Positions 12,584 to 21,369 of a stretch of DNA of 64,000 bases are shown here, one piece after another. The translations under genes were made by a program, and so were the position numbers. Each line of letters begins with the position of its first letter. The first letter of the stretch is position 1. The notes under the pieces are model-generated. The model did no database searches and was not told the origin of the DNA. It saw nothing but the letters and a program-made list of their open reading frames with translations. This DNA comes from Clostridia bacterium (lineage in GTDB: Bacteria > Bacillota > Clostridia > UBA1381 > UMGS1253), in contig JAZNLB010000013.1 in assembly GCA_045578865.1 (NCBI GenBank), positions 15,106 to 79,105 of the forward strand, read 5' to 3'.

Positions 12584-12717
12584 AGGTGTACGAATATGAC
12601 CAACGCCAAACAGCGTTGGTCATATGAATTTGTATAGAGAGATGGAAAGCAGGTTTATTTGTCGCACATTTGCTGCGTGATGAAAATACATGAGAAGGCA
12701 GCTTAGACAAGAAAACA

Positions 12718-12746
12718 TTGACAGAACTGCATATTTTTTGTATAAT
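12718..12746 (+). promoter_or_regulatory. Perfect sigma-A promoter for NhaC-family gene
   Basis: TTGACA-17-TATAAT. Confidence 0.85.
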
Positions 12747-12809
12747 AATGAGGAATTATGTGCAAATATACATTTTGTACAAAACAAAAGAATAAAGGGG
12801 TTTTTAGGT

Positions 12810-14405
12810 ATGAAGAAAAAGACAATCGTCGGTATTGTTTTGGCAGTGCTGGCAGTTGCAATCGTTGCGGCGTTGTCCGTAATGGTAAATAACGGTGCCG
12901 CAGAAGGCAGCCGTTATGCGGCAACATTTATGGCGCTTTTGCCGCCGGTAATCGCAATCGGTCTTGCGCTGATTACGAAAGAGGTATATTCCTCTCTGTT
13001 TGTAGGTATTGTATTTGGTGCATTATTTGCAGCAAACTACAAACCGCTCGGTGCAATGGACTATCTTCTCAATGACGGTGTCGTTGGTGCGGTATCCGGT
13101 CTTGCAGGTATTTTCGTATTCCTCGTAGTGCTCGGCATCATCGTTGCGCTTGTAAATAAAGCAGGCGGCAGCGCAGCATTCGGCGCATGGGCAAAAAAGA
13201 ACATCAAGAGCCGTACGGGTGCGATGTTGGCTACTTTTGTGCTCGGCGTACTTATCTTTATTGATGACTATTTTAACTGCCTCACCGTTGGTTCGGTTAT
13301 GCGTCCGGTAGCGGATTCTCACAAGATTTCCAGAGCAAAACTTTCCTACATCATTGATGCAACGGCTGCACCGATTTGTATGATTGCGCCGATTTCCTCC
13401 TGGGCGGCTGCAGTGGCAGGTTATGCACCGGAAGGGCAGGGCCTTTCGTTGTTTATTCAGGCAATTCCGTACAATTTCTATTCGCTTTTGACACTCGTGT
13501 TCGTTGTGGCTATTGCGTTGATGAAGTTTGACTTCGGTCCGATGAAACTGCATGAAAAGAACGCACTTGAACTCGGCGATTTGTATACTTGCGGCGACAG
13601 AGCGGAAAGCGAAAAGGTTGAGCCGAATGCGAAGGGTAAAGTTATTGATTTGCTTTTCCCGATTATCGTGTTGATTGCGGTTTGCGTATTTGCTCTTGTA
13701 TATGTTGGCGGAATTTTGGATGGTGCATCTTTCATTGATGCCTTTGCAAATACCGATGCAACCGTTGGTCTGCCGTGGGGCGGTATTATTGCACTTCTAA
13801 TTACAATCATCTACCTCGTTGCAAGGCGTATTGTAACACTGAAAGAAGCAATGGATTGTATTCCGAAGGGCTTTATCGCAATGGTACCGGCAATTATCAT
13901 TTTGACATTTGCTACGGCGCTTAAGAATATGACAGGTCTTTTAGGTGCAGATGCCTATGTTGCAGGTTTGATGGAAGGCGCGGCTGAAGGCCTTGCAAAC
14001 TTCCTACCGGCAATCATCTTCCTGGTAGCGTGCTTTTTGGCATTCTCCACGGGTACATCCTGGGGTACTTTCGGTATCCTTATCCCGATTGTTGTTGCTA
14101 TTTTCCCAGCAGGCAGTGAAATGCTCATTATCGGCATGTCCGCTTGTCTTGCAGGTGCGGTTTGCGGTGACCACTGCTCGCCGATTTCCGATACTACGAT
14201 TATGTCCTCGGCAGGCGCAGAGTGCAACCACTTAAACCATGTATCCACACAGATGCCGTACGCAATCTTTGTTGCTGCGATTTCTTTTGTAGGCTACATT
14301 ATCGCCGGCTTCGTTCAGAACTGGATGATTGTACTGCCGATTATGGTTGTAGTAATGATTGTTGCGTTGTTTGTTACAAAGGCAATTACAAAGAAGGCTG
14401 CATAA
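12810..14405 (+). CDS. NhaC-family Na+/H+ antiporter or amino-acid transporter
   Basis: LLPPVIAI, FIDDYFNCL, DATAAP, PISSW, FSTGTSWGTF, GDHCSPISDTTIMSS. Confidence 0.9.
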   Translation: MKKKTIVGIVLAVLAVAIVAALSVMVNNGAAEGSRYAATFMALLPPVIAIGLALITKEVYSSLFVGIVFGALFAANYKPLGAMDYLLNDGVVGAVSGLAGIFVFLVVLGIIVALVNKAGGSAAFGAWAKKNIKSRTGAMLATFVLGVLIFIDDYFNCLTVGSVMRPVADSHKISRAKLSYIIDATAAPICMIAPISSWAAAVAGYAPEGQGLSLFIQAIPYNFYSLLTLVFVVAIALMKFDFGPMKLHEKNALELGDLYTCGDRAESEKVEPNAKGKVIDLLFPIIVLIAVCVFALVYVGGILDGASFIDAFANTDATVGLPWGGIIALLITIIYLVARRIVTLKEAMDCIPKGFIAMVPAIIILTFATALKNMTGLLGADAYVAGLMEGAAEGLANFLPAIIFLVACFLAFSTGTSWGTFGILIPIVVAIFPAGSEMLIIGMSACLAGAVCGDHCSPISDTTIMSSAGAECNHLNHVSTQMPYAIFVAAISFVGYIIAGFVQNWMIVLPIMVVVMIVALFVTKAITKKAA

Positions 14406-14858: not shown

Positions 14859-16307
14859 TTATGAAAGTTTTTCAATACCCTTTTTGATACGCGCAATCGT
14901 TTCTTCCTTGCCGAGAAGCTCAGCAATTTCCACACCGCCGCCCGGTGTAAATTTCTTGCCGGATACCGCCACGCGAAGCGGGAACAAAATCACGCCGTTC
15001 TTTACGCCTAAGGTTTCGATGAGCGCAAAGAGTGCATCGTGGATGGTATCGTGTGTCCACTCGGTCAAACCTTCTAAAACCGGCAGCGTCTTTTCGAGTG
15101 CATCTTTGGAAACTTCTTCGTTGGTTTTCATCTTTTTGTTGACATACAGTTCTGTATCGTAATCGCACAGCTCGTCAATAAAGTCGATGTTTTCCGGAAT
15201 ATCGGAGAATTTTTCCGTGCGGTCGTGGAGCAGCGCAGACAAAAGTGCGTAGTCCACATCGCGCTTGATTTGCTTGTAGTACCCCATTGCCTTTTCGGTA
15301 AACTCTTCCATGGTGAGTTTGCGTATGTATTCTGCGTTCATCCAGTTGAGTTTGTTGACATCGAAAATCGCCGGAGATTTGCTGATGCCGGAAACATCGA
15401 AGGCTTTTACAAGTTCATCGAGCGTAAAGATTTCCTGCTCTGTACCCGGGCTCCAGCCAAGCAGTGCAATGTAGTTGATGATGGCATCTTTTAAATAACC
15501 CTTATTGATAAAGTCTTCATAGGAAGCATCGCCCTCACGCTTGGAGAGTTTCTTTTGGGCATCCTTCATCACCGGAGAACAGTGGATGTATTTGGGGATT
15601 TCCCAGCCAAATGCTTCGTATAGAAGATTATACTTCGGTGTGGAGGAAAGATACTCGCTGCCGCGGATAACATGCGTAATGCCCATCAGATGGTCGTCTA
15701 CCACATTCGCAAAATTGTAGGTCGGCAGACCGTCCGCCTTTAAAAGAATGTTGTCGTCGAGCGTAGAATTTTCTACGGTAATATCGCCGAATACTTCATC
15801 GTGGAAAGAAGTTGTGCCTTCCTGCGGAATTTTCTGGCGGATAACATACGGCACGCCGCTTGCCAGTTTTTCGGCAATTTCTTCCTTGGACAGTTTAGAG
15901 CAGTGGCCGTCATACTTCGGCGGTACTTTCGATGCTGTCTGAATGGCGCGCAGTTCCTCTAAGCGGTCTTTGTCGCAGAAGCAGTAGTATGCTGCGCCTT
16001 TCTCTACGAGTTCTTCGGCATATTTTTTATACATACCGCGTCGCTCACTCTGGATGTACGGGCCGCAGCCGCCGTCTTTATCCGGACCTTCGTCATGTAC
16101 AAGACCGGTGTCGGCGAGCGTTTTGTAAATCAAATCCACCGCACCTTCCACATAACGCTCCTGGTCGGTGTCCTCAATTCTTAAAATAAATGTTCCCTCA
16201 TCGCTCGAGCGCGCCAGAAGCCATGCATACAATGCGGTTCTTAAATTGCCGATGTGCATATAGCCTGTCGGGCTTGGCGCAAAGCGGGTTCTTACTTTGT
16301 TTGCCAT
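14859..16307 (-). CDS. gltX: Glutamate--tRNA ligase
   Basis: [34 protein letters not shown]. Confidence 0.97.
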
Positions 16308-16346
16308 AGTTTTCAGCCTCACTGTTTCATATTTTTCATCTTATAT

Positions 16347-16375
16347 ATTATAATTGTTGTAAAAAGTATTGTCAA
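16347..16375 (-). promoter_or_regulatory. Perfect sigma-A promoter for gltX (-35 overlaps the deoR stop codon)
   Basis: Reverse complement TTGACA-17-TATAAT. Confidence 0.8.
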
Positions 16376-17127
16376 TATAAACTTATACCTTTGCCTGCCA
16401 GTGCATCGGCAAGCTCAGGCGGCACAGGCGCATCGGTTACGATGCAGTCGGCCGCATCAATGCCGGAAACTTTGGAAAATGCACTGCGCTCCATTTTTGT
16501 GGAATCCGCCACGACGATACAGGTGTCCGACTGTTCAATCATAGCCTTATCGACCTGCGTTTCTTCAGCATAGAAGGTGGAAAGTCCGTTTTGTATTTCA
16601 ATACCGTCCACCGACAAAATCAGTTTGTCCGCATGATATTTTTTTAAAATCTCCGTAGCGTCTTCGCCGTGCGTGAACTGGTATTTTGAATTGATGCTGC
16701 CGCCGATTAAGACGATATTGTAATTCGGGTTTGACGAGCCTTCCAATGCGATGGAGATGGAGTTGGTTACGATATTTAAATTGTAGTCCGGCGGGAGATT
16801 TCGAAAGACGAGAAGGGTGGTCGTGCCGGCGTTAAACATCACCGTGTCATTGGGTTTAATCAGACGCGCTGCTTTTTTTGCGATAGAGTCTTTCGAGGCG
16901 CGGTTGGTTTCCAAACGCTGATTTAAATTCATACTGTAATAAGGGCGGTAGGAAAAAACGGCGCCGCCGTGCACCTTGGTTAAAAGCCCTTTGCTTTCCA
17001 TATCCGTTAAATAGTTTCGCACCGTTACTTCGGACACGCCGAGCGCCTTGGAAAGTGAACTTACGCGCACTGAACCGTGTTTTTTTAGCATTTCCAGTAT
17101 TTTGGTTTTTCTTTTCTCGGTTTTCAA
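16372..17127 (-). CDS. DeoR/GlpR family transcriptional regulator
   Basis: HTH VSEVTVRNYL..KVHGGA; sensor domain GTTT, VTNS, IGG, VADSTK, IVTD; TTG start with RBS ggagg. Confidence 0.93.
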   Translation of the reverse strand: MKTEKRKTKILEMLKKHGSVRVSSLSKALGVSEVTVRNYLTDMESKGLLTKVHGGAVFSYRPYYSMNLNQRLETNRASKDSIAKKAARLIKPNDTVMFNAGTTTLLVFRNLPPDYNLNIVTNSISIALEGSSNPNYNIVLIGGSINSKYQFTHGEDATEILKKYHADKLILSVDGIEIQNGLSTFYAEETQVDKAMIEQSDTCIVVADSTKMERSAFSKVSGIDAADCIVTDAPVPPELADALAGKGISLY

Positions 17128-17147
17128 AAAGCATCCCTCCTATGTGT

Positions 17148-17176
17148 ATTTTAAGAGGTTATTATTACTTTGTCAA
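17148..17176 (-). promoter_or_regulatory. Sigma-A promoter for deoR
   Basis: Reverse complement TTGACA-17-TAAAAT. Confidence 0.7.
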
Positions 17177-17179
17177 TGG

Positions 17180-17201
17180 AAAAACTTTCGAAAAACTTTC
17201 G
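17180..17201. promoter_or_regulatory. Putative DeoR operator (tandem AAAAACTTTCG)
   Basis: Exact 11-bp tandem repeat containing a tttcgaaa palindrome, between divergent promoters. Confidence 0.55.
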
Positions 17202-17237
17202 ATTTTAATAAAAAAGAAAATAAATGATAAAAAAGAA

Positions 17238-17266
17238 TTGACAATAAGCTGCAATCTTGATACCAT
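17238..17266 (+). promoter_or_regulatory. Sigma-A promoter for TIM-SIS-YjbQ operon
   Basis: TTGACA-17-TACCAT with extended -10 TG. Confidence 0.7.
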
Positions 17267-17299
17267 AAAGATGCAAAAAAGACAGAGGGAGGCATGAAA

Positions 17300-18001
17300 A
17301 TGTTAAAGGGACACGGTATCAAACCGCCGTTTTTTGAAGTTGGCCCGAAAGCGATTATTTACGGCGAGGCCATGCTCAAACTGGCGAAGGTGATTGATAA
17401 AACCGCTATGAAATACGATGTGGATGTTATTGTAACACCGCAGTATACGGATATTTCGCTCTTAGCAAACAACACGGAGAGAATTTTTGTATTTGCTCAG
17501 CACATGGATGCGTTGAAGCCGGGCAGAGGTCTGGGCAGCGTATTGCCGGAGGCAGTAGCGGCAGCCGGCGCAAAGGGTGTAATGCTTAACCATGCAGAAA
17601 AACCGCTTACGCTGGATGTGATTGAACAAACCATCCGTCGTGCAGAAGAGGTTGGTTTGGCAACGATTGTTTGCGCTGACACCATCGAAGATGTAATGAC
17701 GATTGCAAAGATGGCGCCGGATATGATTGTGGCAGAGCCGACAGAACTTATCGGTACGGGCACAACGAGCGACTCGAATTATGTTGTGGAAACCATCCGC
17801 GCCGTAAAGGAAATCAACGAAGATATTATGGTGCTGCAAGGCGCAGGTATCTCCAACGGTCAGGATGTGTACAATACCATCAAACTCGGTGCACAGGCAA
17901 CGGGTTCGACGAGCGGTATTTTAAAGGCGGACGACCCGTATGCGATGGTGGAGGAAATGCTTTATAACCTCAGAAAGGCATGGGATGAATTGCATGTGTG
18001 A
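17300..18001 (+). CDS. Triose-phosphate isomerase family protein, archaeal-type (probably a non-glycolytic paralog)
   Basis: VGPK, FAQH, LNHAEK, VAEPTELIGTG, GAGIS; about 233 aa; alternative start 17294. Confidence 0.88.
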   Translation: MLKGHGIKPPFFEVGPKAIIYGEAMLKLAKVIDKTAMKYDVDVIVTPQYTDISLLANNTERIFVFAQHMDALKPGRGLGSVLPEAVAAAGAKGVMLNHAEKPLTLDVIEQTIRRAEEVGLATIVCADTIEDVMTIAKMAPDMIVAEPTELIGTGTTSDSNYVVETIRAVKEINEDIMVLQGAGISNGQDVYNTIKLGAQATGSTSGILKADDPYAMVEEMLYNLRKAWDELHV

Positions 18002-18602
18002 ACCAATTAAAAAAAGTGCAATGGAGGCTGCGGTTGCGGCTTACGATATTGAAAAAGAGTGTATCGAGGGTTTGAAGGAACGCTTTGATGCAGAAGCGTT
18101 TTCCAAGGCGGTAAGCCTTTTGGCAAATGCCGAGCGCATCGGCGCATCCGGCTGCGGTCATTCGGGCATCATTTGTCAGCATTTTGCACATCTGATGTGC
18201 TGCATCGAACGCCCGGCGAAATTCATTTCGCCTGCGGAGGCGGTGCACGGCGGTACGGGTTATCTGCAAAAGGGCGATGTCATGTTGTTTGCTTCGCGCG
18301 GCGGCAAGACGGCGGAGCTTCTGCCGATTATCGACATCTGCAAGCAGAAAGAGGTAAAAATCATTGCGGTGACAGAAAACTTTGAATCGCCGCTTGCCAA
18401 GAGTGCCGATGCCGTACTTTATCAGTATGTCAACCGCGAAACAGATAAATATAACGCACAGGGTACGACATCATCTACTGCACTTTGCATGATTTTCCAT
18501 GCGTTGCAGGCGGCGCTCATTGAGCAGACGGACTACCAAAATGAACAATTTGCAAGAATTCATCCCGGCGGTGCTGTGGGTGAGAGATTAAATAAAAAAT
18601 AA
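17994..18602 (+). CDS. SIS-domain sugar-phosphate isomerase (KdsD/GutQ-like, no CBS domains)
   Basis: GCGHSG, EAVHG, SRGGKTAE, TTSST, FARIHPGGAVG; start overlaps TIM stop. Confidence 0.88.
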   Translation: MCEPIKKSAMEAAVAAYDIEKECIEGLKERFDAEAFSKAVSLLANAERIGASGCGHSGIICQHFAHLMCCIERPAKFISPAEAVHGGTGYLQKGDVMLFASRGGKTAELLPIIDICKQKEVKIIAVTENFESPLAKSADAVLYQYVNRETDKYNAQGTTSSTALCMIFHALQAALIEQTDYQNEQFARIHPGGAVGERLNKK

Positions 18603-18623
18603 TTCAAACAGGAGGAAAAGAAA

Positions 18624-19244
18624 ATGGAATTTAAGTTTTTTCAAAAGGAATTAGAGTTGCAGTCGAGAGGTTGGATTCCGACCTTCCACGATATCTCCAA
18701 GGAGATTATCGAGATTGTAAAGGCTTCGGGCGTTAAGAACGGTACGGTGACGATTGCATCCCACCACACCACTTGCTCCGTAATGGTACAGGAATGTTCC
18801 CACGATATCGACTCTTTCGATTTAGAGTACTTGCAGCATGACCTGCTCGATATCATGAGAAAGATGATTCCGGATTACACCAATGAAGGCGACTACCGTC
18901 ATCCGGGCCCGATTCATTCGCAGTTCGGCAGATATGTAAATGAGCCGGGCGACTTTACAAGCATGAACACAGACGGCCATCTCAGAAGTGTATTCTTCGG
19001 CAGAAGCGAAGTTATGACCATTAAAGACGGTGCACTCGACGGTGGTGAATTTGCACATGTTTACTTCGTAGACTGGGATCATGTTCGCGCGCGTCGCCGT
19101 CAGGTAAATGTTACCGTTATGGGTATCGCAGAAGATGTTGCAGACAGAAAGTGGAACAACGGAGAGGTTATCAATACTCTGCGTAAGTTCACCGACGAAG
19201 AAAAAGCATTCGATGTACACTATACACTCCAGCAGGAAAGATAA
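18624..19244 (+). CDS. YjbQ/UPF0047 family protein, extended
   Basis: SGVKNG, HHTTCSVMVQE, YRH, NTDGHLRSVFFG, FVDWD..RRRQV; strong RBS aggagg. Confidence 0.85.
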   Translation: MEFKFFQKELELQSRGWIPTFHDISKEIIEIVKASGVKNGTVTIASHHTTCSVMVQECSHDIDSFDLEYLQHDLLDIMRKMIPDYTNEGDYRHPGPIHSQFGRYVNEPGDFTSMNTDGHLRSVFFGRSEVMTIKDGALDGGEFAHVYFVDWDHVRARRRQVNVTVMGIAEDVADRKWNNGEVINTLRKFTDEEKAFDVHYTLQQER

Positions 19245-19258
19245 GGAAAAGCAAAATT

Positions 19259-19294
19259 TAGAGGGCGATGATTCCATCGCCCTCTATTATTTTT
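19259..19294 (+). terminator. Terminator of TIM-SIS-YjbQ operon
   Basis: tagagggcgatg-attc-catcgccctcta followed by ttattttt. Confidence 0.8.
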
Positions 19295-19330
19295 GTATCC
19301 GGCAGACTTGCGTAGTTTAGCCGATTACCT

Positions 19331-19385
19331 GCGGACCCCTAAAACGGCTTGGGAGGGATTGCATCCCCCCAAGCCCCCCTGCTGT
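19331..19385 (-). repeat. G-rich REP-like element related to 2088-2190
   Basis: Reverse complement ggggggcttgggggg-atgcaat-ccctcccaagcc-gttttaggggtccgc. Confidence 0.5.
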
Positions 19386-19440
19386 CCTGTGGCAAGATTT
19401 GAAAATGGAAAATGGAAAATTACGGAGGATTTTTGCAATG

Positions 19441-19469
19441 TTGCATATTTTTGTGTTTGGTGATATACT
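19441..19469 (+). promoter_or_regulatory. Sigma-A promoter for uvrC
   Basis: TTGCAT-17-TATACT with extended TG. Confidence 0.6.
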
Positions 19470-19515
19470 GATAATTGGATAGATATATCTGATGTAGGGA
19501 AAGGAGGAAGTGTGC

Positions 19516-21369
19516 GTGTTTGATTTTGATTTGCAACTCAAAAAACTGCCGGAAGAGCCGGGTGTGTATTTGATGCACGATAAAAGCGATTCGGTCATTT
19601 ATGTCGGCAAGGCAAAGAATTTAAAAAACCGTGTGCGCCAGTATTTTATGCAAAGCAAAAATCACTCTGTCAAGGTGCGGGCGATGGTCAGCCATGTGGC
19701 GTGGTTTGAATATATCATCACCGACTCGGAACTGGAAGCCTTGGTGCTCGAATGTAACCTGATAAAAAAACACAAACCGCACTACAACATCCTTTTAAAA
19801 GACGATAAGCATTATCCGTATATCAAGGTAACGATGAACGCACCATATCCGCGCATTACGGCAACGCGCACAATGTTGCCGGACGGAGCGAAGTATTACG
19901 GGCCGTATTCGGGCATGGGCGTGGTGCGCCAGACGCTGGATTTAATTAAAAAAATCTTCCTCATCCCGACTTGTAAAAGAAACTTTCCGCAAGACATTGG
20001 CAAGGGCAGACCGTGCCTGAATTTCCAAATTCACAAATGTTTTGCGCCTTGCAGGGGCGAAGTTTCTCAGGCGGAATACAAGAAAGTTTTTGAGCAGATT
20101 TGTATGTTTTTGGACGGTAAAAGCGATGCGGTTGTGCAAAACTTAGAGGTGCAGATGCACAAAGCGGCAGAGGCGATGGAATTTGAAAAAGCGGCGCAAA
20201 AGCGAGACTGTATTGCGGCAATCCGTGCCGTAAACGAACGGCAGAAAATCATTTCTGATGCACAGACGGACCGCGATGTTGCAGACTTTTTATCCTACGA
20301 TGATAAGGCGTTTTTCGAGATGTTTTTAATCCGCGGCGGTCGCATGACGGGCAGGCAGAGTTTTCGCATTGACGGCGTGAGTGAGATGACCGATGGCGAG
20401 ATTATGACGGAATTTTTAAAACGATATTATACGGAAACGAGTATACTGCCGTGTGAGATTATTTTGGGCTGTGCGCCGGAGGAGGCGGAGATGCTTTCGC
20501 AATATTTGTCCGCTCTGCGTGGCAAAAAGGTGCACCTGACCGTGCCGGTGCGGGGCGAGAAAAAACAGCTTGTAGGTATGCTTTTAAAAAATATTCAAAA
20601 CGCGGTGGATGATTACAAAATCGGAGAACTTAAACGCGCCACTGAGCGAGATGTTCTGGAAAAACTGGCGGAGTATGCCAACTTGAAGGTGTTGCCGAGG
20701 CGCATTGAAAGTTACGATATATCCAACACGGGCGGTACGGGAACGGTTGGCGTAATGGTGGTATTTGAAAACGGCGTGGTGAGCAAGGCGGCAAAGCGAA
20801 ACTTCCGCATCCAGAGCATCGAGGGGCAAAATGACTATGGCGCAATGCAGGAGGTTATCTGTCGCAGAATGCAACGCGCACAAGCCGAACTTTCGGCGAT
20901 TGCGGCGGGCACGCTGGATAAAAAAGATGCAAAATTTTTGCCGCTTCCCGATTTGATGCTCATTGACGGCGGTACGGGCCATGTAAATGCCGTGCGTGAG
21001 GCACTTGTGCCCTTTGCGCCCGACTTTGCTGTTTTGGGTATGCAAAAAGACGACCGCCATCGGTTTTCTGCCCTGATGGACGGGCAGGTCGAAATTGAAT
21101 TACCGAACAATTCGGCGGCGTATCGCTTAATCGGTGCAATTTGTGAGGAAACGCACAATGCGGCTATCGGCTATCACAAAAAGGTGCGTAAGCAAAATGC
21201 TTTTCGCTCCGAACTTTCGGAAATTTCGGGCGTGGGCGCGGTGCGTAGAAAACAACTTATGCGTGCATTTGGTTCGCTCGACGCTGTTTCCAAGGCAAGC
21301 GTAGAAGAACTTTTAAAGGCGGGGCTCGATAAGCGCAGCGCACAAAATGTATATGACTATTATCACTAG
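19516..21369 (+). CDS. uvrC: Excinuclease ABC subunit C
   Basis: GIY-YIG (PGVYLM..IYVGKAKNLKNRV), Cys cluster, UVR domain, YDISN, LIDGG, C-terminal HhH. Confidence 0.96.
   Translation: MFDFDLQLKKLPEEPGVYLMHDKSDSVIYVGKAKNLKNRVRQYFMQSKNHSVKVRAMVSHVAWFEYIITDSELEALVLECNLIKKHKPHYNILLKDDKHYPYIKVTMNAPYPRITATRTMLPDGAKYYGPYSGMGVVRQTLDLIKKIFLIPTCKRNFPQDIGKGRPCLNFQIHKCFAPCRGEVSQAEYKKVFEQICMFLDGKSDAVVQNLEVQMHKAAEAMEFEKAAQKRDCIAAIRAVNERQKIISDAQTDRDVADFLSYDDKAFFEMFLIRGGRMTGRQSFRIDGVSEMTDGEIMTEFLKRYYTETSILPCEIILGCAPEEAEMLSQYLSALRGKKVHLTVPVRGEKKQLVGMLLKNIQNAVDDYKIGELKRATERDVLEKLAEYANLKVLPRRIESYDISNTGGTGTVGVMVVFENGVVSKAAKRNFRIQSIEGQNDYGAMQEVICRRMQRAQAELSAIAAGTLDKKDAKFLPLPDLMLIDGGTGHVNAVREALVPFAPDFAVLGMQKDDRHRFSALMDGQVEIELPNNSAAYRLIGAICEETHNAAIGYHKKVRKQNAFRSELSEISGVGAVRRKQLMRAFGSLDAVSKASVEELLKAGLDKRSAQNVYDYYH

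Follow-up and report, generated by a model that had tools for sequence, protein, structure and literature searches.

The DNA stretch analysed here (the window) comprises 64,000 nucleotides of contig JAZNLB010000013.1 from a Clostridia bacterium, whose genome (GCA_045578865.1) consists of 36 contigs, amounts to 1.42 Mb and is 97.1% complete. Between positions 16372 and 19294 the window contains a small regulated unit: a gene for a DeoR-family transcriptional regulator (16372..17127, minus strand, 251 amino acids) and, divergent from it, an operon of three plus-strand genes encoding an archaeal-type triosephosphate isomerase (TIM)-like protein (17294..18001, 235 amino acids), a single-domain SIS protein (17985..18602, approximately 205 amino acids) and a long member of the YjbQ/UPF0047 family (18624..19244, 206 amino acids). 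All four family assignments were confirmed by Pfam and NCBIfam. The SIS open reading frame (ORF) opens at 17940; its likely start is the ATG at 17985 behind a GAAAGG ribosome-binding site, which gives a 17 nt overlap with the TIM-like gene, and the YjbQ gene has an AGGAGG site upstream. The operon is closed by an intrinsic terminator (19259..19286, plus strand, the hairpin reading on both strands) with a 12-pair stem, seven of the pairs being GC, followed by a T-run. The unit is flanked by gltX (14859-16322, minus strand) on the DeoR side and by uvrC (19510-21369, plus strand) beyond the terminator. We lean slightly towards the interpretation that a catabolic pathway is split in this genome and that the locus provides its downstream, regulated half, in which the three operon products would act as an isomerase cascade on the ketose phosphate made by a kinase.

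The DeoR and TIM-like genes are separated by 166 nt, with promoter-like hexamers on both strands. The site facing the DeoR gene (17148..17176, minus strand, TTGACA-17-TAAAAT) agrees with the consensus in 11 of 12 positions, the site facing the operon (17238..17266, plus strand, TTGACA-17-TACCAT with an upstream TG) in 10 of 12; both were recognized by consensus match alone. Between them lies an exact tandem direct repeat of an 11-mer (GAAAAACTTTC twice, 17179..17200, no strand assigned), a candidate DeoR operator. Even with up to three mismatches allowed over both halves, no further copy of this tandem exists in the 1.42-Mb genome. When the orthologous DeoR/TIM intergenic regions of seven loci were examined, a comparable tandem was found at the equivalent position, clearly in L034, L093 and L092, and in weaker form in L005 and L025. 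Immediately next to the -35 box facing the operon is a second direct repeat (ATAAAAAAGAA twice, with 19-nt spacing, 17208-17237). The regulator itself carries an N-terminal HTH_DeoR domain (PF08220, 56.9 bits) and a C-terminal DeoRC sensor domain (PF00455, 163.4 bits), the domain pair of DeoR-family repressors. Its best NCBIfam match was AgaR (190 bits, below the cut-off of 260), and no equivalog cut-off was reached. The layout given by the initial annotation, i.e. a DeoR gene divergent from three coupled genes, back-to-back promoter-like sites, a tandem repeat, a terminator and gltX/uvrC flanks, was borne out by the ORFs, the Pfam and NCBIfam matches and the sequence motifs, and the family matches also agree with its description of a DeoR-linked unit of sugar-phosphate-isomerase-type genes.

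The TIM-like protein scored 203.2 bits with NF003302 (cut-off 132) and 82.4 bits with PF00121 (cut-off 20.1), it stayed below the cut-off of TIGR00419 (110.7 vs. 130.6 bits), and it aligned to the Pyrococcus TIM 1HG3 with an E-value of 2.9e-44. Lys19, His100 and Glu148 align to 1HG3 residues and are invariant in all 66 family members, and the phosphate-binding loops are kept in the family. In TIM the Asn two residues before the Lys is catalytic, and 1HG3 has N-F-K at this place. This Asn is replaced by Gly17 in the window protein, as it is by Gly in 62 of the 66 members, and the family has an extra conserved Glu (Glu15) two residues upstream of Gly17. The four members retaining the Asn are the aldolase-linked ones described below. 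A canonical tpiA gene (317 bits) is found elsewhere on the same contig (G000:C13:8603-9334). The TIM-like gene is a paralog, as the initial annotation had supposed, and not the sole tpiA of the genome.

The SIS protein (PF01380, 71.8 bits) is nearest to KpsF/GutQ-type isomerases, and it consists of the SIS domain alone, without the SIS plus CBS-pair architecture. It remained below every NCBIfam cut-off (TIGR00393, 121.3 bits vs. 203.7; GutQ, 120.9 vs. 481). Among solved structures it matched best 3FXA (E 4e-40), a Listeria "SIS domain protein" without assigned function, followed by 3ETN (7e-21) and 5UQI (3e-19). In arabinose-5-phosphate isomerase the Lys of the GxGKxG motif is catalytic; the Bacteroides fragilis enzyme 3ETN has GMGKAG. 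The motif of our SIS family is G(C/S)GHSG (GCGHSG in the window protein), and 66 of 68 members have His where 3ETN has the Lys. The C-terminal HPGG motif is retained. With its scores below the cut-offs and its His in the motif, the protein is no standard arabinose-5-phosphate isomerase.

The long YjbQ protein matched PF01894 with 87 bits (cut-off 27) and fell just below the cut-off of TIGR00149 (65.4 vs. 67.75 bits). In the Foldseek search with its AlphaFold model (pLDDT 77.5) the ten best hits were all YjbQ structures, with target-normalised TM-scores of 0.81-0.86, among them 2P6C, 1VMJ and 1VPH (probability 1.00, TM-scores 0.81-0.84), and the ESM Atlas returned YjbQ clusters alone. The protein can be described as a YjbQ core with an insertion carrying a Y-x-HPG sequence and with a tail of about 40 residues. 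His48, Thr49, Thr50, Cys51, Glu57, Asp61, Asn115, Asp117, His119, Asp150, Asp152, Arg157 and Arg159 are invariant; this set includes motifs common to canonical YjbQ proteins and looks like an active site.

To our knowledge, UPF0047/YjbQ is a widespread family with no accepted physiological reaction, and more than ten of its members with solved structures were among the structure matches. In a passage of a 2026 preprint yjbQ is referred to as a gene with "no clear function". Our literature search, which did not extend to subscription journals and supplements, found no paper placing YjbQ in sugar-phosphate metabolism.

The scan of species-representative genomes yielded more than 591 YjbQ relatives, of which the best 80 (85-96% identical) were used for locus analysis; with ten loci fetched from sampled genomes this made 90 loci. 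The best 80 come from metagenome-assembled genomes labelled Clostridia, Oscillospiraceae, Acutalibacteraceae and the like, and originate from ruminant, bird and human guts. In 70 of the 90 loci the TIM-like, SIS and YjbQ genes are all present, in several gene orders. A class-level sample of 200-201 genomes was searched with thresholds of E<=1e-10 for the YjbQ clade, E<=1e-30 for the TIM-like and E<=1e-25 for the SIS protein. The YjbQ clade and the TIM-like gene were detected in an identical set of 27 genomes out of 200, SIS in 29 genomes, 25 of them belonging to the 27, and a FucI-like gene in 15, of which 13 belong to the 27. None of the seven sampled genomes of the window's own order contained the TIM-like, SIS and YjbQ genes, and when 301 genomes were sampled across the phylum, six had a match to the YjbQ clade. 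Thus the three genes do co-occur in other genomes, a point on which the proposal of the initial annotation depended, and by this co-occurrence YjbQ gains a metabolic context.

In all ten loci from the sampled genomes the TIM-like gene directly adjoins the YjbQ gene, including those with short YjbQ forms of 34-55% identity. Short YjbQ genes come after the TIM-like gene in 22 of 23 cases, long ones after SIS in 46 of 84 and after TIM in 19 of 84. Neither gltX nor uvrC was found nearby in any of the 80 related loci, the unit therefore moves as a block. Several loci (L008, L009, L010, L017, L033, L061, L070 and others) have a single TIM-like gene, of the 44-49% class, with a YjbQ gene on either side; in this type of operon the order is SIS, long YjbQ, TIM-like, short YjbQ, followed by an AraA-like isomerase, an Amidohydro_2 protein and an FGGY kinase.

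The conservation of the long YjbQ protein is very high. Its mean amino acid identity over 77 full-length loci is 90.3%. In the same loci codon positions 1 and 2 are 92% identical and position 3 is 51% identical. Across species the protein identities range from 79 to 96%. Because third codon positions have retained just 51% identity, recent horizontal transfer as the sole cause of the high protein identity can be ruled out, and the pattern means an old divergence under very strong purifying selection. In the class-level sample the identities are bimodal: 17 other genomes carry a long form with 79-89% identity, and short forms of about 165-170 amino acids are 36-52% identical. As a baseline of divergence we used canonical TpiA, in place of gltX, which was dropped when four of five genomes gave partial matches (approximately 350 of 487 residues) with 40-42% identity, which are maybe not orthologs. 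Canonical TpiA of the five genomes shares 60-68% identity with the copy of the window genome, compared with 79-87% for the long YjbQ and 72-77% for SIS; the TIM-like protein is 81-88% identical in four of them and 48% in G484, and a FucI-like protein is 90-91% identical in three. The proteins of the module are thus mostly more conserved than canonical TpiA in these genomes.

Such conservation would also be explained if YjbQ, without being a catalyst itself, assisted the TIM-like isomerase, the SIS isomerase or both as a subunit, chaperone or regulator. The long form keeps its 79-96% identity across families while its TIM-like partner ranges from 44 to 90%, and the preferred positions, short forms after TIM-like and long forms after SIS, could reflect such a partnership. 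We consider this explanation improbable: the invariant residues have the appearance of an active site and include motifs shared with canonical YjbQ. A 413-amino-acid protein (P0001) on one metagenome contig, which joins SIS and a long YjbQ (94% identical to the window protein) in a single ORF, would also speak for it; this ORF is a singleton, and may be a read-through or gene-calling artefact. Seven longer proteins matched YjbQ, all singletons except one that had two member sequences; they included one SIS-YjbQ ORF but no TIM-YjbQ fusion. As singletons may result from gene calling, fused ORFs were set aside as too weak to serve as evidence. Complex prediction for the TIM-like and YjbQ proteins gave a score of 0.00 (mark 0.32), which has no bearing either way.

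A more conventional explanation is that the genes are ordinary ones: a second true triose-phosphate isomerase, a SIS protein that isomerizes arabinose 5-phosphate or a hexulose phosphate, and a general-purpose YjbQ, clustered for boosting flux. The match to NF003302, a "triose-phosphate isomerase" family, at 203 bits vs. 132 fits this explanation, as do the retained Lys, His, Glu and phosphate-binding loops, and the relatives that kept the Asn stand directly behind a class II aldolase. On the other side, the catalytic Asn has become Gly in 62 of the 66 members, which acquired the new conserved Glu15, the SIS protein is below all cut-offs for arabinose-5-phosphate isomerase and has His for the motif Lys, and a shared set of exactly 27 out of 200 genomes is unexpected for a housekeeping role of YjbQ and the TIM-like protein. 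YjbQ proteins have a promiscuous (secondary) thiamine-phosphate synthase activity, and in this genome, in which ThiE had no match, YjbQ might be thought to take over that function. However, no ThiM match above the cut-off was found either, and a thiamine-phosphate synthase would be left without one of its substrates; because both ThiE and ThiM are missing from the matches at these levels, this role of YjbQ is unlikely here. Taken as a whole, we regard the ordinary-genes explanation as unlikely, if slightly less so than that of a non-catalytic YjbQ.

More can be learnt from the neighbours. They were counted by ORF clustering of the 80 loci, and clusters occurring in at least two loci, plus selected loci, were annotated. 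The commonest neighbour is an FGGY kinase (55/80 loci), followed by a FucI-like isomerase (23), an FSA/transaldolase (22) and a protein of about 494 amino acids with a ceramidase fold (22), then by a NagA-like amidohydrolase (13), an Amidohydro_2 protein (11), a weakly NagB-like protein (9) and an AraA-like isomerase (8); the DeoR gene is present in 26 of the 80. The initial annotation called the unit self-contained. Locally this holds, since no transporter, kinase or dehydrogenase gene lies within 16372-19294, but on a genome scale it does not: orthologs of the neighbouring kinase, isomerase, transporter and hydrolase genes are located on contig C5 (86.5-92.0 kb), where they form an intact four-gene operon for an FGGY kinase, a FucI-like isomerase, a major facilitator superfamily (MFS) transporter and a 513-amino-acid protein. 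The XylB-like FGGY kinase of C5 (505 amino acids) shares 58-77% identity with the kinases of 33 among the 90 trio-containing loci, and the FucI-like isomerase (448 amino acids) is 67-91% identical in 27 loci. The 513-amino-acid protein (L084 4549-6090, G000:C5, minus strand) belongs to no Pfam family; its model (pLDDT 83.7) was matched by Foldseek to the catalytic domain of neutral ceramidases (2ZWS/4WGK, E 3e-22), and it has an invariant H-x-H motif (His110, His112). It is this protein that recurs beside the trio in 22 of the 80 loci. In other species the trio and the C5-type genes are contiguous. In L093, from another family, they form one string: DeoR (reverse), then TIM, SIS, YjbQ, FGGY kinase, ceramidase-like, FucI-like and FSA genes, all forward. 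Because of this contiguity we conclude from gene order that the window holds one half of a split pathway and C5 the other.

The genome background is compatible with such a pathway. There was no match in the genome to a class II AraD/FucA-type enzyme (PF00596) or to FSA; RpiB, Rpe, transketolase and two class II FBP-type aldolases (FBP, fructose bisphosphate) are present. From the observed gene content, residues, co-occurrence, conservation and split arrangement we infer a possible order and direction of steps, a type of substrate, a DeoR effector and a part for YjbQ in catalysis. The sugar would enter through the MFS transporter encoded on C5 and would be trimmed by the ceramidase-fold hydrolase, the FucI-like isomerase would convert it to a ketose, and the XylB-like FGGY kinase would phosphorylate the ketose. 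DeoR would repress the operon at the tandem site until the ketose phosphate, or its product, accumulates and releases the repressor. The TIM-like, SIS and long YjbQ proteins would then rearrange the ketose phosphate by successive isomerization or epimerization steps of the enediol type, and the end product would be an intermediate of the pentose phosphate pathway or of glycolysis. The trio would thus stand in for an AraD/FucA-type class II epimerase or aldolase.

The sugar probably has five or six carbons, because the neighbours are isomerases of the FucI/AraA type, an XylB-like kinase, a ceramidase-fold hydrolase and NagA/NagB-like enzymes, and it is possibly N-acylated or anionic. In other species the accessory genes include CE4 deacetylases, M20 amidohydrolases, an Amidase_6 protein, GDSL and alpha/beta esterases, a GH20 hexosaminidase and parts of an Opp-type ABC transporter. 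Taken with the ceramidase-fold and NagA/NagB-like genes, these accessory genes, with their many deacylases, are a hint but no proof that the sugar is an acylated amino sugar. The genome has a second sugar cluster (G000:C19:33994-43300) with a NagB-like gene, a NagA-like gene, a class II aldolase of GatY/KbaY size (C19:38543-39367) and another FGGY kinase, as seen from tblastn and Pfam matches.

Glycosyltransferase genes near the C5 operon raise the thought that the module is biosynthetic and makes an unusual sugar phosphate, e.g. arabinose 5-phosphate, for a cell-envelope glycan, and the nearness of the SIS protein to KpsF/GutQ-type isomerases would suit it. This is very improbable, as the recurrent neighbours are a DeoR repressor, kinases, aldose isomerases, transporters and deacylases, and the annotated neighbour clusters include no nucleotidyl-transferases or Kdo-type synthases.

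The initial annotation favoured a tetrose- or tetrulose-phosphate cascade as in erythritol or threitol catabolism, in which the TIM-like protein would correspond to EryH/LerI, SIS would replace RpiB, YjbQ would be an epimerase or aldolase, and the product would be erythrose 4-phosphate. A TIM paralog beside canonical tpiA, control of the DeoR type and a transketolase to use erythrose 4-phosphate speak for it, and so does L089, a distant locus combining the TIM-YjbQ pair with two dehydrogenases, a GutM-like protein, an FSA/transaldolase-like gene and transketolase. But the commonest neighbours listed above act on C5/C6 sugars, which goes against a specificity for tetroses, there is no polyol dehydrogenase near the trio in the window genome, and since RpiB is encoded elsewhere in the genome there is no need for SIS to replace it; any likeness of the archaeal-type TIM-like protein to EryH would be one of analogy. 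The annotated neighbour clusters contain no partners of the polyol-dehydrogenase, EryB or EryC type. We find the tetrose cascade about as improbable as a non-catalytic YjbQ.

Elsewhere in the phylum the pair is found in a second type of operon. Four distant loci (L086, L087, L089, L094) carry, behind a class II aldolase of the FBP/tagatose-bisphosphate type, a short YjbQ gene and a TIM-like gene that keeps the Asn; SIS is not nearby in any of them. Three of them (L086 230-7479, L087 6997-14202 and L094 5843-13635, in genomes G092, G287 and G327) carry upstream a LevR-like sigma-54 activator with phosphotransferase system (PTS) domains and Gat-type PTS parts, so that the operon encodes the activator, EIIA, a Gat-type EIIC, the aldolase, the TIM-like protein and the short YjbQ, with no kinase. 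Among the other 86 loci an aldolase of this family is seen just in L050 and L058, approximately 4 kb away. This second type of operon shows that the TIM-YjbQ pair is the old core of the module.

Several observations weigh against the isomerase cascade that we favour. The TIM-like protein is above the NCBIfam cut-off for true triose-phosphate isomerases, it could simply be a second enzyme of this kind. The SIS protein lacks the Lys of GxGKxG. The loci with aldolase, Gat-type PTS and Asn-type TIM would fit plain handling of triose phosphates, YjbQ then not being an isomerizing enzyme of sugar phosphates. The YjbQ family is heterogeneous, 17 of the 27 pair-bearing genomes having the long form and 9 the short form alone. 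Finally, the operator search gives no support beyond chance for co-regulation of the trio with the C5 operon: the tandem operator was not found upstream of the latter, where a single half-site with two mismatches was seen, and the C5 locus gave 11 matches against 9.2 expected by chance.

A bolder proposal is that the TIM-like/YjbQ pair, extended by SIS, performs a "carbonyl walk", in which the keto group is moved stepwise along the chain and ketose 1-phosphates are interconverted with ketose omega-phosphates. We think that it is rather doubtful, yet not so much as the alternatives discussed above. If it were true, the number of isomerases would be matched to the length of the chain to be dealt with: TIM for tetruloses, as in the erythritol pathway, TIM and YjbQ for pentuloses, and all three enzymes for hexuloses. 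In that case YjbQ/UPF0047 would represent a novel class of isomerases or epimerases of sugar phosphates, possibly acting through the invariant Cys51, His48 and Glu57, and class II aldolase/epimerase chemistry would have been replaced in many gut Clostridia.

Independently of the exact reaction, this YjbQ clade now has a concrete context that can be tested: perfect co-occurrence with the TIM-like gene in the 200-genome sample, operons with kinase and isomerase genes, and about 90% identity with synonymous sites near saturation. There is thus a genuine prospect that a physiological reaction can be assigned to UPF0047 for the first time. The pathway would be present in many uncultured gut and rumen Clostridia, and its substrate is probably a relevant component of dietary, host or microbial glycans.

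It remains to describe the surroundings of the unit in the window. A gene of the Na+/H+ antiporter family (12690-14405) lies beyond gltX. Between the operon terminator and uvrC there is a G/C-rich stretch (gggagggattgcatccccccaagcccccc, 19317-19440) under a 93-amino-acid minus-strand ORF (19317-19598). An Rfam scan of 16200-19600 gave as its sole match a sub-threshold MicX over the terminator (E 0.072).

It is instructive to compare the module with known systems. Like the single-domain SIS isomerases (B. fragilis arabinose-5-phosphate isomerase 3ETN, 5UQI, Listeria 3FXA and 6-phospho-3-hexuloisomerase), our SIS protein consists of the SIS domain only and has about 200 amino acids. The long YjbQ shares the fold and the HTT and N-D-x-H motifs with canonical YjbQ proteins (TM0723 1VMJ, aq_2013 2P6C, SSO2532 1VPH and E. 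coli YjbQ); it differs from them in its length (206 vs. 130-150 amino acids), in having the insertion and the 40-residue tail, in being far more conserved, and in that its clade always occurs in genomes holding the TIM-like gene (the set of 27). The AraA-AraB-AraD and FucI-FucK-FucA operons resemble the related operons in combining an aldose isomerase of the FucI/AraA superfamily with an FGGY kinase and a sugar-specific regulator. In contrast to them, no class II AraD/FucA-type enzyme was found in the window genome, and in related operons the trio takes that place.

A further parallel is offered by the isomerase cascades of erythritol and threitol catabolism, EryC-EryH/TpiA2-EryI/RpiB in Brucella and LerI-DerI in Mycobacterium. 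There too, a TIM paralog beside housekeeping tpiA and further isomerases of sugar phosphates act one after another on material delivered by an FGGY-type kinase, control is by a sugar-phosphate-sensing repressor, and the cascade feeds central metabolism; the module would be analogous in all these respects. The differences are equally clear. The TIM here is of archaeal type with Gly in place of Asn. Its partners are SIS and YjbQ, whereas those in the known cascades are RpiB and a xylose-isomerase-like racemase. Apart from the FGGY kinases, the annotated neighbour clusters of the 90 loci include no tetritol kinase or dehydrogenase, EryC-type racemase or RpiB, and the neighbours are C5/C6 aldose isomerases and deacylases instead of tetritol dehydrogenases. 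Taken together, the locus may encode a repressor-controlled sugar-phosphate isomerase cascade with YjbQ and SIS as partners of the TIM-like protein.

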